A DNA stretch of 60,433 nt, counting the filler. It is 9 parts of 9 records of this genome, joined end to end, with 100 filler letters (N's around TTAATTAATTAA, not from the genome) between each part and the next. Parts side by side here need not be neighbours in the genome. Positions count along the whole stretch, not along the records: positions 26,335 to 32,994 come from SRR31147125_63667; 8 more parts are not named here. One strand, given 5' to 3'. Position numbers and translations under genes: made by a program. The notes beneath the pieces were generated by a model. That model had not been told where the DNA came from. It ran no database searches and worked only from the letters and a program-made list of their open reading frames with translations. Shown piece after piece: positions 9,014 to 32,994 of this stretch (position 1 is its first letter; each line of letters begins with the position of its first letter).

Positions 9014-10285
9014 TTGAAAAAAAATTATTATATGGTCGGACTGGTTTTGTTGACTTTTTTTGTTATTTCATTTGTCACGAACATTCTGGGCCCCATTATT
9101 CCTGCTATTATTGACAGTTTTAACCTCAGTTTAACCATGGTTGCTCTGCTGCCGTTTGCATTTTTTATAGCTTATGGTGTCATGTCCATTCCTTCAGGAA
9201 TGCTTATCGAAGTTTATAAAGAAAAAGTTGCGATGCTGGTGTCTTTTATCGTTGCTTCTGTCGGTGCGCTCATGTTTGCTATTATCCCAAGTTATTTCGT
9301 GGCTATAATTTCCCTATTTCTCCTCGGGTCCAGTTTTGCCATGTTGCAGGTGGCTATCAATCCGCTTTTACGAGTGGCTGGTGGTGAGGAGAATTTTGCT
9401 TTTAATTCGGTATTGGGTCAATTTCTTTTTGGACTTGCGTCCTTTTTAAGCCCCCGTGTCTACTCCTACCTTGTGCAGAATCTGGATAATCCGACTGCTG
9501 ATAGCAATTTTGTGGTCACGAACCTTGCAAAAGTGGTTCCTGCCAGCCTGCCATGGGTATCCCTGTATTGGGTTTTTGCCCTGATTTCCATTGTTATGGT
9601 CGTCGTGGTAATCGTTTCCAAATTTCCACAGGTTATTCGTGCCGAGGATGAACGTGCCGGCGCCTGGGAAACACATGTCAAGCTTTTCAAAAACCCGATT
9701 GTTATTGCTTATTTCTTTGGCATCTTTTGTTATGTTGGTTCGGAGCAGGGTGTAGCAAACTGGATATCCAAGTTTCTGAGCACCTATCATAATTACGATC
9801 CCGTGACAGTTGGTGCCAATGTGGTGTCCTGGTTCTGGGGGCTTATGACCGCAGGTTGTATATTAGGCCTGGTTCTGCTTAAATTTATTGACAGTCGACG
9901 TGTCCTGATCGGATTTAGCCTGGCATCGATCCTCTGTTTAACGATTGCCCTGTTAGGACCGGGCTCGGTTGCTGTTGTCGCTTTCGCAGTGATGGGATTT
10001 ACTATATCTATTATGTGGTCTGTTATTTTTTCTCTGGCCCTTAATTCATTGGCAAGCCATCATGGTTCTTTTTCCGGAATATTGTGTACAGGAATCGCTG
10101 GTGGTGCTGTGATATCTCTTATTGTTGGTGGTCTTGGCGATATTTTTGGACTTCGATTTGGTATGATGTTTCTCTATCTGACAATGGGTTATATCCTGAG
10201 TATCGGTTTCTGGGCCAAACCACTTATTACGAATAAAACAATTGATTTAAAGAAAAAATCAGATGTAGCTGAAAAGACTGCCTGA
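9014..10285 (+). CDS. MFS sugar transporter (FucP/GluP-like)
   Basis: About 12 hydrophobic segments; FFIAYG, LQVAINP and YVGSEQG motifs. Confidence 0.88.
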   Translation: MKKNYYMVGLVLLTFFVISFVTNILGPIIPAIIDSFNLSLTMVALLPFAFFIAYGVMSIPSGMLIEVYKEKVAMLVSFIVASVGALMFAIIPSYFVAIISLFLLGSSFAMLQVAINPLLRVAGGEENFAFNSVLGQFLFGLASFLSPRVYSYLVQNLDNPTADSNFVVTNLAKVVPASLPWVSLYWVFALISIVMVVVVIVSKFPQVIRAEDERAGAWETHVKLFKNPIVIAYFFGIFCYVGSEQGVANWISKFLSTYHNYDPVTVGANVVSWFWGLMTAGCILGLVLLKFIDSRRVLIGFSLASILCLTIALLGPGSVAVVAFAVMGFTISIMWSVIFSLALNSLASHHGSFSGILCTGIAGGAVISLIVGGLGDIFGLRFGMMFLYLTMGYILSIGFWAKPLITNKTIDLKKKSDVAEKTA

Positions 10286-26334: not shown

Positions 26335-26386
26335 GAATGAAGGAACGCATGGCACACACACACCGGTTGTTCATGGCCTCTCTCAC

Positions 26387-26489
26387 CCTCAGAGTCGAGT
26401 CTCACGGCAATGATTGGGGGCCCTACGTCTTCCGGTGCTCCTGCTGCCGGAGATGTAGGGATCCCAGGTGGAGGTGGCTCGTCCGCCAT
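26387..26489 (-). CDS. Probable first exon of an unidentified eukaryotic gene divergent from MCMBP
   Basis: ATG at 26489 (MADEPPPPGIPTSPAAG...) ends at a G|GTGAGA donor followed by GT-repeat intron-like sequence; the rest is off the contig. Confidence 0.4.
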
Positions 26490-26608
26490 CCAACGCTTGG
26501 TAGTTGTGTTGTCTGTGCGACCCACCCAACCGATGGAGAGGAGAGAAGGGGAGTGTTCCTTCGTCCCTTGTAAATTCCCTCCCTTCCCTCCCGTTCTGGC
26601 GAGATCTC

Positions 26609-29051
26609 ATGTCCTCTCCTTCACCTGAAGAGATCATACGCCCATTGGATGTAGTGAAACGGTTGTTTGCGTCTGCGGGGCCGGAAGACGGGAACTGGGG
26701 TGTGAAGGCTCACTTTCACCATGCACTTGTGGACGGAGGGCTTCTCGAAGCGGTAGGAGGAAGGCCCTGCCTGTCTGGTTGTCTGGTTGTCTGGTTGTGG
26801 GTCCTCACACAATGCGCACATATAGGTCCCGTGTATGAACTCGACACCTGTGGAACAAATACCTCCTCATTCCCTTGTACGGTTCACGGGAATGGTGCAG
26901 GAGATGTTGAGCCCGGAATTGTATTTGGGGGTGGTCCGAGAAGCCGATGTGCGTGTGGTGTTGTTTCAGAGGTCCCTCGACTCATGGATGCCCAGTCTCT
27001 TGTCACATCCAAGTACACTGACATCCTACAAGGTCAAGTGCGTGGATACACCCATGCACACACCCACGCACACACAATCTCATACACTGACACACTTCCA
27101 TACATGGGACAGGATACAGACGTGGACGTGAACACATCCACGGCACTACGTGAGTGGACATTCGAACGGCAGCCACTATGCTGTGTGTCGATTCCCGGAG
27201 AAGCTCCTTGGGCCACACCCACTGTATCCGTTCTTGTTTGAAGGGATGGATGGATGGATGGATAGCTCCTCTCTCCTTGATCACACAATTCAGCCGGTAC
27301 CTCATACACCTGATGATCGTGTTTCCCGTTCCAAACGTGGACTGGAGGTGGATGAAGAGGAACAATCGGGCAGACGTGGACCATCCGCATCAACAGACGT
27401 GCATGCGCCTCCTACGTCACATGCTGATCATGCAAAGCAGTGGAATCCACTCCCTGGCTGTAATGCTCCTGCCGTTATAGTGCTGATGTGCGCCTCCTTC
27501 CCCTTGCTGTGTGGTTGGCTCATGCATGATTCATCAGATACGAAGAGGCGGATCAATTGAAAATGAATGACATGGCGGAATTCGTTGGCGTACTCTCTCT
27601 GGTTCCCGACCTGGCCACTATGAGGTGAGACCAAGGGTTGGCCCTTAATCACCGGGATCTCACCGCCCTGCCAGTCCCGATGATGAGTTTCCAACTGATC
27701 TCCCTCAACCTACAAGCCTTCTGCCTCGTCTACACTGTATCTTTTATCGAAATTTGGAGGATCCGAATCCAGCCCTTCCCGCACCGGGTCCTGCACGTGC
27801 AGAAGGTATGATGTCCATCTGTTCCAGGAGGGACAGCTGACGACGACATGATCCTTGTAGTGGAAGCACATATCGCACACGAACTTCTCTTTCTTCGAAC
27901 GCATTTGATCTACTATATGGCATCAGCACTGGGCGGGGACATCGTGGGTGCCGAATACTTGCTCTTCCATTTGTTGTCACGAGTGTACGTGTGTGTGGGT
28001 GTGTGGATGCTGACTGTATTGTGATTTTTCCATCAGACACACACGGCAAGGTGGAGTGGTTCTGGGAAAGTTCTCCCTGAACCTGTCTGGCGTAGAGGCT
28101 GGGACGTCCGTTGACAATGCGATTGGGACGTTGTTAGCAAATTTGTGTCCCCGTTCGTTTGTTCTTCCCTTGACTATTGAGGTGTGTGTAATGTGTGCAT
28201 GTGTGCCACATGCATTCCCACAGCCATTGTGTTCCAGAACCTTTGCAAGTTACGATTCATCCCCAAGAAGGATTACACACAGAACCGGCTTCTGTCCGGC
28301 ATTCTCCAACTCCCCCAAGGAACCCATGTGGTTGTGGATGAAACCGTACTTCAACCCGGCACATTGGATGAGACAGGAGTTCGCAATTTGCAGGCACTAC
28401 GCGATGTCATCTTTTGGCAAAAGGTGCCGTGTGTTCGTGTTTGTGAAGTGTGCTGGTCTCATGCTCTTTCAAGGTGAACTACGATTTCGAGTTTCATTCG
28501 CTTGAATTCAACGTGGACATACCTGTTATGGTGTTATCGCAGGGCAAGTCCTTGTTAGAGGTGAGGTTGTTGGTCCAATTCACTTTGCATTCACTCTTCC
28601 CCATTCGAAAGTGCGATTGTCGTCTTCCTCTACATCCCAAGGAACCGTTTACACTCCCTTCTGTCCCCTCTCCATTCAATATACCTGAATTCTTCACGAA
28701 TTGCCGCCGGTATCTTGGGTTGATGCGGTCCCTTGACTTCAGCATTCGTTCTTCTATGTCTGAGGTAGGTAATGCGGACGATCAAGGAACTGGCATACTG
28801 ATCCATCATCAGGTGATTGAATCTGACTTTGTGGCAGCTCGAAAAGCAGAAGGGGACAGTGTGCGCCAAGACACATTGAATCTCTGGCTGACACTCGCGA
28901 GGTTTGTAATGATGACGATGCTGTTGCTGCTCTATATGACAATCCATTCAGGCTACACGCCCTCAGTTTCGGTGAGAAAGAATTGACACAAGAACGATGG
29001 CAAGCCACGCTCGAATTGGAACGTATCCGTGTGGCTCGTTTTTCTTCCTGA
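26609..29051 (+). CDS. MCMBP: MCM complex-binding protein (eukaryotic, 13 introns)
   Basis: Manual splicing gives SLVRFTGMVQEM, PRLHC, AEYLLFHLLSRV, PKKDYTQNRLLSGILQL, DETVLQPGTL, YDFEFH and IESDFV. Introns: 26753-26825, 26949-26995, 27038-27112, 27224-27293, 27488-27537, 27625-27674, 27806-27860, 27985-28036, 28182-28237, 28424-28473, 28561-28611, 28765-28812, 28902-28951. The three in-frame introns (75, 51 and 48 nt) are less certain. Confidence 0.88.
27224..27293 (+). other. Putative U12-type (minor spliceosome) GT-AG intron
   Basis: Donor GTATCCGTT, branch TCCTTGAT (27274-27281) 12 nt before the end, CAG acceptor. Removal at phase 0 restores the frame and removes an in-frame TGA. Confidence 0.72.
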
Positions 29052-29120
29052 TCGGGATGAGGGAGGGGAAATGGATCTGTTTGATTGATCACTTGCCTGT
29101 TCATTTTCTCGTCCGTCACC

Positions 29121-30677
29121 ATGCTGCGCCGTGGACAACGCTTGTGTTGTGTCCTGTTGCTGGCACGAGGAATCAGTCACCCCACGAATCACGTGTCACG
29201 TAAACGTTTTGAGAGGGTTCGTGAGGCACACCAAAAGCAGGAGGAGTCGTATCGCAGGCTGGAGGAGCTGGCGGACCAGGGAGACGCCGACGGGTGCTGG
29301 CGACAACTTGCCGTGCTGGGACGTGAGAACATTCGTCCTGATACGACGCACTACCTACACATCATTCGGGGGATGGTGAAAGGGGGCGATCTGCGTGGAG
29401 CGGAGAAGGTCATTGACGAGATGCGTCGAAGGCGTGTCCCAACGGACGTGAGTGCATGGAATCTTCTTCTGGATGGCTATGTGAAACAAGGAGACCTACG
29501 AAAGGCCTTGGAGTGTGAGGAAGAGATGCGTCATGATGGTGTACAGGGGGATGACGGGACGTGTCGTATCCTCGTGCGAGGTCTTGTTCGCAAAGGGGAC
29601 ACAAATGCAGCTATGAGCCTTGTGGAACGTATGGAGCGAGAAGGTGTGAGACCCACAGCTACAACCCTCCAGTTATTGGGTCCCGACGTCATTGACCCTG
29701 GTGTGGCGGATCGTATGGAACTTCTGGAGGCTGTGGGTCTTCAACCGGATGCATGGATGCGCCGATCTCTCCAAGGAGACAAAGAGGAGGGTTCTAGGCA
29801 ACGTCATGTGGAGGACCGACAAGAACAGACACGCCTTCGTGCTTGTACGCGCAAACTCATCCAACTGGTAGGGGAGGGTGCCTTCACGGGGTGTTGGGAA
29901 GAGATCGACAAGTTGGAGCGAGAAGGATTTCATGCCAACGCTGTACACTACACGGTGATCCTGCGAGGACTTGTGGGGGTCGGTGATATTTCAGGAGCCG
30001 AGAAGGTATTGAAACGGATGCGCACGCGTGGGATCGCAGCAGGCCCTCTTGCATGGCATGCACTGTTGGATGCCTATGTGAAGCGTGATCAATTGAAACG
30101 TGCTCTGGCGGGGATGAAGATCATGCGGAAGGACGGAGTACAACCTGATGTATTTGTGTATGCCACACTGATCAAGGGGCTTCTGGAGAAGCGAAGGCAA
30201 CATGATGCCGAGGTGATGATTCAACAGATGATTTCCGAGGGAATTCGACTCGATGCCGTGGCATACAGCACGCTGATGAAGGGATATGTTCAAGACGGGG
30301 ACGTGGCCAAGGCGGAACACGTGCTAGAGGATATGAGACGAAACGGTGTGCAACCTACAGTCGTGACGTACACGACACTGCTCTCGGGACTGGTTCGATG
30401 TGGGGATATGGCCAAGGCCGAACAGATATTGGCCCAGATCCACAAGGAGAAGTTGTCTCCGACAGTCGTCACGTACAACACCCTCCTGAAGGGTTATTTG
30501 CGGAAGGGAGAAGGAGGTCTGGAGGATGCCACACAGGTGGTGACACGCATGCAAGAGTCTGGCATTGTTCCGGACACGGCCACATACAACATTGTGCTAC
30601 GAAGTTCTGCGCGGCGACAAGATAAGAAGGAATTGTTACACATGGTGAAGATGTTGATGGACAGAAGAAAGGAGTGA
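29121..30677 (+). CDS. P-class pentatricopeptide repeat protein, intronless, with mitochondrial-like presequence
   Basis: About 12 35-aa repeats (e.g. TYNTLLKGY, AYSTLMKGY...GVQPTVV); Arg-rich, acid-free N-terminus MLRRGQRL. Confidence 0.9.
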   Translation: MLRRGQRLCCVLLLARGISHPTNHVSRKRFERVREAHQKQEESYRRLEELADQGDADGCWRQLAVLGRENIRPDTTHYLHIIRGMVKGGDLRGAEKVIDEMRRRRVPTDVSAWNLLLDGYVKQGDLRKALECEEEMRHDGVQGDDGTCRILVRGLVRKGDTNAAMSLVERMEREGVRPTATTLQLLGPDVIDPGVADRMELLEAVGLQPDAWMRRSLQGDKEEGSRQRHVEDRQEQTRLRACTRKLIQLVGEGAFTGCWEEIDKLEREGFHANAVHYTVILRGLVGVGDISGAEKVLKRMRTRGIAAGPLAWHALLDAYVKRDQLKRALAGMKIMRKDGVQPDVFVYATLIKGLLEKRRQHDAEVMIQQMISEGIRLDAVAYSTLMKGYVQDGDVAKAEHVLEDMRRNGVQPTVVTYTTLLSGLVRCGDMAKAEQILAQIHKEKLSPTVVTYNTLLKGYLRKGEGGLEDATQVVTRMQESGIVPDTATYNIVLRSSARRQDKKELLHMVKMLMDRRKE

Positions 30678-30688
30678 ATACGATTGAT

Positions 30689-32994
30689 TCATTTGATCTG
30701 AAACACGTCGTCCCTGAACTCCAAGCGTCCCTCGTCACACATTGAACTAAGAAGACTCGAGAGTTCCTGGAACGTCACGCAAAATAAGATCCCACCAACA
30801 CGCGCCATGCCTACACACTTCCTGCGTCTGTTCATAGGGTGGTTCACTGACAAAGAGTTTCAGCATATTGTGGATCCTCTCCAGGGGCAATCCGCCCAGG
30901 TTTGTTAGTATACTCGTAATGTAGGATTCGAGTTTCTGTATGTGTGTTAACTCCATCTGTCGCCTGTGTGGGAAGCCAACCTCTGTGTCCTGTTCCCCTT
31001 GTGCAGATGCCGCCCCAGCTCCATTGTCCTCTTCAATATACTGATGCAGAGGCGCTTTCCAGACACTGTGAATGACTGACTGCCCCTCCTCCCTTCCCCG
31101 TGTGTGCAGCACACCTTGAGTCCCTTGTCCCTCTTCCATGTGTTCCATCACTTCAAATACATCTCTTGTCACTTCACGTACAATCCCTTGGTTGAGAAGG
31201 AGGACCATCTTTCGCTTCACATAATCCGGGGTGGCATTGAGCATTGACGCCAGTTCCGTGGTGGTCCATGTATCTGCAAGACAATGAGCTGGGCGTAGCA
31301 GAACGTAGCAGAAATAACATCAATCCCCAAACCTTTCTCTTGAAAGAAAAGAAGAATGGACGCGTGCACAGGCGACACACTGAGCTGAAGCGTCCTGCTC
31401 GCGAGAGTCACCTTCACCTCCACCATACCCAGGTTGCGTTTCCAGTGAAGACGACGAGGTGCTTTCACAATATGATACTCCTTTTCGTATGCTTTGAATT
31501 GTCTACACCCAAGCGAATCAGTGTCATCGTCCTCATGTTGTCTCTCACCCACTGCTCAATCTCTGGAGCCAGTACAATCGATTCCTCATTCAGTGTCGGC
31601 CAGAAAACATGAGAAAGAATCGAAGCATGAAGAGACAGTTGGTCTTCCCCCATGTATTTTGCCATTCTGGACTGAAGATTGGCATCGGTACGCTTCGATT
31701 CGGATATGTCACGAAGCATGACTTCGCATTGTGCTAGGTTTGTCTGAAAAAGATTTGGGGTCAGTAGAGTGTGCAACGCACTCCTGTGTGTCGACTACCC
31801 ACTTCCCCAAAACGGAGCTTTAGCAATTCGAGGTTACGAATCTGGGAACGTGCATGCAGGTAAGGCACACTGGGAGGAGTTATCTGCGTACCTCGCTATC
31901 AATGTCATAGTCGGGCAGGGAGAGAAGTTTATCAGCGAGAAGGGTACGATATTCGACGACGAACAAATCCCGACTCCCATAGATTCCCACCAAACGACTC
32001 AGAATATCTTGCGATGTGCGACTCTTGGATGGTTTGGCTGGAGGGAGGGCAAGATCTCAGCAGATATGTGGGCCGACAGACGTTTGGGAACTTCGCACAG
32101 GGATCCGCTTCCACGGGGTCAGGGATCCACGCCACGGCTCCCCCTTCCTCTTCATCCTCTGTGTCCTCCTCTTCCCGTGCATTCGTGTCATGCCGTCGCA
32201 ATTCAGCGAACAGTTCGGATTCCTCATCATCAATCAGACTCGTCACAATACACCGAATGGTATCCTTGCGCTCCCTGCGGGTTTGTAATTATATCCTCCT
32301 CTGCGTGTCTTACCACACACATACACACATACACACACACGTACCGCAAGTATTCCTTCACAGGATCACTAATTCGTTCCAAAACTACACCCGTGGGATC
32401 AAGAAGACGGAGACACTTGATGGTGGAGATGTAGGTTTCAATGATGTCAGAGGTGTTGGCTCCTGGATGAAGTAATCGTTTCGCAAACCTATACGTATGC
32501 CCTCGTCACATCCCAGGCAAACATCCACGAAGCCACGTACGCCGAGCTCAGGGCTGTGATCATGCTGCCATGCTCGCAAATCTGTGTGAGACATACACGG
32601 AGGTCTTCTAATGCGGGCATACTGTCTGGATAGTCGATGATGATATCAAACAACTCAGAGATTCTGTGTTACCTCGCGGACATGAGCCACCCATGCACAT
32701 ACACCCTACACGCACGTACCGAAGCCCACCAAACATCTCATGCATGAAAAAATCGAGGCGTGTTCTCCATGAGGGAACAACACGTGAGCCATCTCCACCC
32801 TGTGCCGAGAGCACCTCCTCCAAGAATCGATCCCCCACATTATGAACCCAATCTCGCACATGTTCCAACATATGAACATGAAAGGAACCCTTACAGGATT
32901 GTGTAATCAGAAATTCCGTCTTTCTATATCTGAGAGGGTGATAGGAACGTATTAAGAGAGAGAGAAGCAAGCAAGCAAGCAAGCAAGCAAGCAA
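30689..32994 (-). CDS. ANAPC2: Anaphase-promoting complex subunit 2 (cullin-like), intron-rich, 5' truncated
   Basis: Spliced exons give ELFDIIIDYPDS, RLLHPGANTSDII, LRERKDTIRCIV, WIPDPVEA, LELLKLRFGE, ILSHVFWP and LPLERIHNMLK; about 11 complete short GT-AG introns; stop at 30689-30691. Confidence 0.88.
32966..32994. repeat. (AAGC)n microsatellite in an APC2 intron
   Basis: About 7 tandem copies at the contig end; other intronic SSRs at 27244-27263 (GGAT) and 32313-32340 (CA). Confidence 0.8.

Follow-up and report, generated by a model that had tools for sequence, protein, structure and literature searches.

The window analyzed here is a stretch of DNA of 60,433 bases in which nine unrelated contigs are joined by N spacers. 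Only the contig at positions 26335-32994 (SRR31147125_63667; 6,660 bases, 52% G+C) is eukaryotic, and its organism is represented by these 6.66 kb alone. The contig carries a gene for MCMBP, recognized through exon 10, which matches PF09739 (MCM_bind) with 90.7 bits (cut-off 25.6, E 1e-25); the modelled protein aligned over its full length with MCMBP proteins at 32-37% identity, the best match being 37%. The subject of this analysis is the fourth of the 13 introns of this gene, for which a sequence-only reading had proposed removal by the minor (U12-type) spliceosome. The features concerned are the following.

26609-29051, plus strand: MCMBP gene from ATG to TGA, its 14 exons separated by 13 introns, modelled from reading frames and GT..AG pairs
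27113-27223, plus strand: exon 4, with the conserved ERQ..C.S.PGExxW motif, ending four codons past W
27224-27293, plus strand: intron 4, candidate U12-type intron, 70 nucleotides (nt), phase 0, GT-AG
27224-27232, plus strand: candidate U12-type 5' splice site, GTATCCGTT
27236-27243, plus strand: rival in-frame donor of the major type, GTTTGAAG, with which the intron would be 58 nt long
27233-27271, plus strand: (GGAT)n-rich low-complexity stretch inside intron 4, masked in read mapping
27274-27281, plus strand: candidate U12-type branch site, TCCTTGAT, with the branch A 13 nt from the 3' junction
27292-27293, plus strand: 3' splice site AG
27294-27487, plus strand: exon 5, an acidic linker with a KR..E/D motif

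The 5' splice site of U12-type introns has the consensus RTATCCTT and stands directly at the exon boundary, while the branch site, TCCTTRAY, is located about 10-20 nt from the 3' splice site. The donor of intron 4, GTATCCGTT, fits the first of these at positions +1 to +6 and +8 to +9, with a G instead of a T at +7. Its branch site, TCCTTGAT, matches TCCTTRAY, and the 12 nt after it end in AG. Exon 4 ends in CT and not in AG, CC is retained within the branch site, and exon 5 starts with C. On both strands of the contig GTATCC was found six times and TCCTTRAY twice, and the two occur together in the geometry of an intron only at intron 4. Examples of donors of the RTATCCTT type are listed in Table 1 of PMC7367187. 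An AT-AC reading of the same intron (27226...27286) was dropped, its donor ATCCGTTCT not being ATATCC.

If intron 4 is retained, the frame-2 exon runs into a TGA at 27239. With 27224-27293 taken out, ...PGEAPWATPT continues in phase 0 into PVPHTPDD..., and the claim that the in-frame stop requires removal and that the exons then meet cleanly was upheld. Two further donors are in frame with the same acceptor, at 27230 (GTTCTT) and at 27236 (GTTTGAAGG).

Parts of the contig are contained in two runs (X1 and X2) of one sample, neither of which is listed as RNA. With a (GGAT)n repeat inside the stretch, it might be supposed that an assembly error or a frameshift, and not an intron, separates exons 4 and 5. 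This is scarcely credible: an independent X1 contig covers 26966-27311 with zero differences, the stretch has to be removed on account of the change of frame and the stop at 27239, and the exons on either side align with MCMBP.

Gene models and neighbouring introns

In all, 21 introns were modelled on the contig from reading frames and GT..AG pairs, 13 in the MCMBP gene (I1 to I13) and eight in an APC2-like gene (A1 to A8). Nine mapped contigs of X2, all at least 99% alike, skip exactly 10 of the 21, namely MCMBP I1, I2, I8, I9, I12 and I13 and APC2 A1, A2, A4 and A7, and after intron 2 had been revised no X2 junction conflicted with the gene models. X2 has no cover for I5, I6 and I7 and no joint for I3, I10, I11, A3, A5, A6 and A8. 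Because ten precise GT..AG skips occur in two adjacent genes, X2, which is labelled "DNA?" (a guess of the tool), is probably an RNA-derived library of the sample of X1, though DNA runs, too, may contain joined forms that are themselves DNA. A reading of intron 2 as 23 nt (26949-26971, GT..AG) was rejected, since X2 skips 47 nt (26949-26995) and the intron position in vertebrates agrees with this longer form. The 23-nt reading also keeps the frame and fits the lengths of homologues better, yet it is not the form seen.

For intron 4 itself X2 gave no joint row; positions 27233-27271 were masked, and one X2 joint row was dropped at repeats. The dropped row probably belongs to intron 4, because at the two remaining masked stretches (32311-32345 and 32951-32994) the depth bins leave no X2 cover to be accounted for. 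Reported without its ends, the row does not tell donor 27224 from donor 27236.

Intron 4 differs from its neighbours in several respects. At +5 intron 4 has C, while 19 of the 20 remaining modelled introns have G, and CT[CG]A[CT], present within the last 35 nt of 13 of the 20, is absent from the last 35 nt of intron 4. A GTATCC donor with a branch motif 12 nt before the acceptor had been described as unique among the 13 MCMBP introns. This was borne out and extends to the whole set, intron 4 alone among the 21 carrying U12-type signals. The lack of a pyrimidine tract, to which the same reading had appealed, is real (pyrimidine fraction 0.50 at -15 to -4) but not diagnostic, as a fraction of at most 0.50 is also seen in five of the 20 others. 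As a side observation, the donors of the contig are mostly GT[AG]CGT, with G at +5.

A position weight matrix (PWM) was built from the 20 other donors only. In leave-one-out scoring these 20 reached 2.3-11.2 bits, and the three in-frame donors of intron 4 obtained 2.0 (27224), -1.2 (27230) and 0.0 bits (27236), all of them below the 20 true donors. Intron 4 must be spliced and yet offers the major spliceosome no donor as good as those of the 20 others, an observation which is supportive and, because the matrix is small, not decisive.

The scores bear on an unlikely, though not negligible, alternative, in which the major spliceosome now uses donor 27236 (GTTTGA), the intron has 58 nt, four codons (VSVL) are added to exon 4, and GTATCC and TCCTTGAT are relics of an earlier U12 intron or a coincidence. 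This donor is in frame with the same acceptor, it has the +5 G of 19 of the 20 other donors and resembles those of I13 and A8 (GTTTGT and GTTTGG), and a length of 58 nt falls within the local range of 47-75 nt. Its 0.0 bits, however, fall short of every one of the 20 true donors, and among 167 decoy GTs of the MCMBP gene 38% score as high or higher.

The corresponding position in animal-like MCMBP loci

Loci for comparison were collected by scanning metagenomes with an alignment of eight MCMBP proteins, which was used because a 45-protein alignment was too diverse for a locus scan. A total of 376 stretches matched, of which 104 were confirmed and 80 kept, many of these being intronless, transcript-like contigs. 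The search patterns from the eight proteins do not fit the window's own sequence, and relatives of its organism lay out of the scan's reach.

An exon with the motif C-x-P-x-PGExxW was found in 41 of the 80 loci. Reading continues past this point in 34 of the 41, most of which are transcript-like and uninformative on introns. Four loci (L050, L053, L058 and L061) break exactly three codons past W, in phase 0, with minor-type ATATCCTT donors, and the AT-AC U12 introns of the animal-like loci have the form ATATCCTT...TCCTTAAT. In L050 the signals are ATATCCTTTT...TTCCTTAAT, followed by 9 nt ending in AC, while in L058 and L061 they are ATATCCTCAT...T(T/C)CCTTAAT, followed by 10 nt ending in AC. 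The donor ATATCCTCAT is also off consensus, with C at +8. The minor intron of L061 occupies 796-901 (106 nt), and all other resolved introns of that locus start with GT and have G at +5 (eight by script, one by eye). In L053 (1727-2989) the donor ATATCCTTT stands at the shared site, the 3' end is apparently AA, and TTCTTTAAC is found 10 nt upstream; this would be a non-canonical AT-AA minor intron. The exons of L058 and L061 are each 67-87% identical to wrasse MCMBP, and L050 and L053 are 63-66% identical to that of a bivalve.

Donors of the major type occur at the same point in two of the 41 loci, L051 (GTAGAT; 9649-9660) and L052 (GTAAGT; 2340-2351), and in one other, L055 (2438-2490), a GT intron seems by eye to begin one base further on. 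The three are candidates for minor-to-major conversion or intron sliding. Conversion at this position in L051 and L052 lends some weight to the use of donor 27236 by the major spliceosome in the window, but the converted donors occupy the old boundary, rather than a point 12 nt downstream of it. Only after a recent switch, moreover, would relics be expected still to match at all 14 of the 14 core positions.

The sequence-only reading had proposed a comparison of the intron position with that in animals and plants. Phase 0 and the nearness to PGExxW are shared with the animal introns, but the boundary of the window's intron 4 is four codons past W (PGEAPW-ATPT|) as against three codons at the animal site; donor 27236 would set it at eight. 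The distance from the previous shared intron to the intron at the PGExxW site is 31 codons in L058, 34 in L050 and 37 in the window. Comparison of the printed junctions by eye showed that seven of the 13 introns of the window's gene (I1, I2, I3, I8, I11, I12 and I13) have the exact position and phase of those in the fish-like loci L058 and L061. By the same comparison I4, I6 and I7 share the phase and lie 1-3 codons apart in poorly aligned linkers, I5 is 2 nt off, and I9 and I10 are without counterpart. Because the rest of the gene structure is conserved in this way, intron 4 is probably the same intron as the animal minor intron. According to PMC7612377, human MCMBP holds one or more U12-type introns, and the fish-like loci suggest that the human U12 intron is the one at the PGExxW site. 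A literature search under the names ETG1 and C10orf119 returned nothing relevant to U12 introns.

How readily such signals arise by chance was estimated with a loose composite (RTATCC, 25-390 nt, TCCTTRAY, 8-16 nt, AG/AC). When both strands of the retrieved eukaryotic loci (286,946 bases) were searched, the composite turned up at eight donor sites, of which three were MCMBP minor introns and five lay elsewhere, one of the five spanning less than 100 nt. From the five non-MCMBP sites about 0.1 would be expected by chance anywhere on the contig. The chance that a composite would also fit the acceptor, the frame and the intron at the animal U12 site should be far smaller. That intron 4 is an ordinary major-type intron with a GTATCC donor and resembles U12-type introns by accident is improbable. 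In its favour are the five non-MCMBP donor sites in 574 kb of strand sequence, and neither the branch distance nor the pyrimidine content is distinctive in this organism. Against it, GTATCC lacks the +5 G of 19 of the 20 neighbours and scores under all of them, and the coincidence would have to hit, out of 21 introns, the very one whose counterpart in animals is of the U12 type. In C. elegans, which has no minor introns, the intronIC program made one false call in 116,241 according to PMC7367187, a figure that holds for intronIC calls and not for the present counts.

One other locus deserves mention. L039:3279-3660 contains the donors ATATCCTCTT and GTATCCTGCT, then TTCCTTAAT and AG/AC at a suitable distance; the MCMBP of this locus is only 26% identical to the query. 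These signals may belong to a minor intron of a neighbouring gene or be due to chance.

Class, descent and splicing of intron 4

Judged from sequence, the assignment of intron 4 to the U12-type class appears well supported by its own signals, by the want of any major-type donor of good quality, and by a position nearly identical to that of the animal-like AT-AC introns. On this point the sequence-only reading gains support from signals, donor scores and position alike; its donor is not forced, 27230 and 27236 also being in frame. Intron 4 is probably a GT-AG U12-type intron orthologous to the AT-AC intron of animal MCMBP. It would descend from an ancestral minor intron which bilaterian animals have kept as AT-AC just after PGExxW. 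In its removal, U11 and later U6atac would pair with GTATCC(G)TT, U12 would pair with TCCTTGAT so as to bulge the A located 13 nt from the AG, and the exons would be joined at 27223|27294 in phase 0. The steps are those of established U12 splicing, and we infer that donor 27224 is the one used.

Several observations weigh against this interpretation. The G at +7 departs from the consensus RTATCCTT. Since two other in-frame donors share the acceptor, the reading frame does not oblige the exons to meet at 27223|27294. TCCTTGAT also holds a generic yTnAy branch site, and the distance of 13 nt from the branch A to the AG is within the range of the contig's major-type branch motifs (11-30 nt). The boundary is offset by one codon from the animal U12 site, within a linker that resists residue-by-residue alignment. 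Rfam models gave no matches in the window at the gathering score and none on the contig at E<=1, so that no minor small nuclear RNA (snRNA) was found in the 6.66 kb of the organism. Finally, a genome is counted as positive for minor introns in PMC10639083 when it has at least three introns of the minor class together with no fewer than two minor snRNAs, and a single intron falls short of this.

The animal MCMBP AT-AC intron, as seen in L050, L053, L058 and L061, is the closest known system. It shares with intron 4 the gene, the PGExxW exon context, phase 0, the TATCC core of the donor and a branch site, TCCTT(A/G)AT, which precedes the 3' end by 9-12 nt. The window's intron differs in being GT-AG, in lying one codon further from W and in its +7 G; it is also shorter, with 70 nt as compared with 106 nt in L061 and more than 1 kb in L053 (the latter from exon matches).

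The stramenopile Blastocystis sp. ST1 is likewise a microbial eukaryote of compact genome whose minor introns are very short; they have a mean length of about 42 bp, 49% of them being in phase 0 and 77% AT-AC (PMC10639083). Its minor introns are mostly AT-AC and are known from a genome with hundreds of cases, whereas the 6.66 kb studied here offer a single case, of the GT-AG kind. The "minor-like" introns of Olthof et al. 2024 (PMC11347168) resemble intron 4 in having an imperfect donor (here the +7 G), in keeping the branch CC and in lacking A-2G-1, traits belonging to those of the class that are affected when the minor spliceosome is inhibited. According to the same source, absence of A-2G-1, the branch CC and a C at the start of the 3' exon go with dependence on the minor spliceosome in human minor-like introns. 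Membership of that class, however, is decided by scoring annotated genomes with PWMs, while the window's intron was compared with it by features only.

Minor introns have been traced to early eukaryotes and occur in all supergroups, as stated in PMC10639083, PMC11347168 and PMC7367187. The minor intron at PGExxW may predate the split between animals and this protist and may reach back to early eukaryotes, and an ultra-compact, intron-rich lineage may run a minor spliceosome that accepts +7 G, perhaps by way of matching changes in U11 and U6atac; we hold the chances of this wider proposal to be about even. From the intron we infer that a functional minor spliceosome, with U11, U12, U4atac and U6atac, probably persists in this organism. 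If so, an unsampled and highly compact eukaryote would join the lineages that keep minor splicing, and MCMBP would offer a minor intron common to animals and a distant protist, useful in reconstructing ancestral minor introns. No current view would be changed, as Blastocystis has already provided examples of short minor introns in a compact protist (PMC10639083). The practical gain is a concrete marker, consisting of one junction and four snRNAs, for a fuller assembly of the organism.

The surrounding contig and placement of the organism

Two more genes were identified on the contig.

29121-30677: PPR gene, intronless, with a match to PPR_2 (E 9e-83)
about 30750 to the contig end, minus strand: APC2-like cullin gene, with ANAPC2 and Cullin matches

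The spacers separating the MCMBP, PPR and APC2-like genes are about 70 nt each. Compaction is combined with intron richness in an unusual manner, 13 introns of 47-75 nt being contained within the 2.44-kb MCMBP gene.

The organism could not be placed, its proteins being equally far from animal, streptophyte and Telonema sequences. The C-terminal half of MCMBP is about 45% identical alike to the proteins of a jellyfish, Closterium, Trichoplax and Telonema. A search with exon 10 matched four longer proteins, three named vertebrate ones and one unnamed. It gave no protein of similar length, and identity was at most 64% among 784 representatives. Among the 80 metagenome loci the best was 38% identical over 400 residues and 34% over the full length. 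The PPR neighbour had no relative above 30% identity, and no close relative of the organism was found in any of the collections searched.

The other eight contigs of the window (1-26234 and 33095-60433) have dense, long, uninterrupted open reading frames and a G+C content of 35%-54%; they look prokaryotic and are unrelated to the eukaryotic contig. At window position 26363, record 9 of X2 (26363-26487) has 43 extra letters that are absent from the contig before 26363. These letters may represent a further exon of a gene divergent from and upstream of MCMBP, where an open reading frame on the minus strand starts from near 26497. Short tandem repeats occur within introns and at the contig end, namely (GTCTGGTT)3 at 26780-26800, (GGAT)n at 27244-27263 and (CAAG)n at 32945-32994, the last of which probably ended the assembly.

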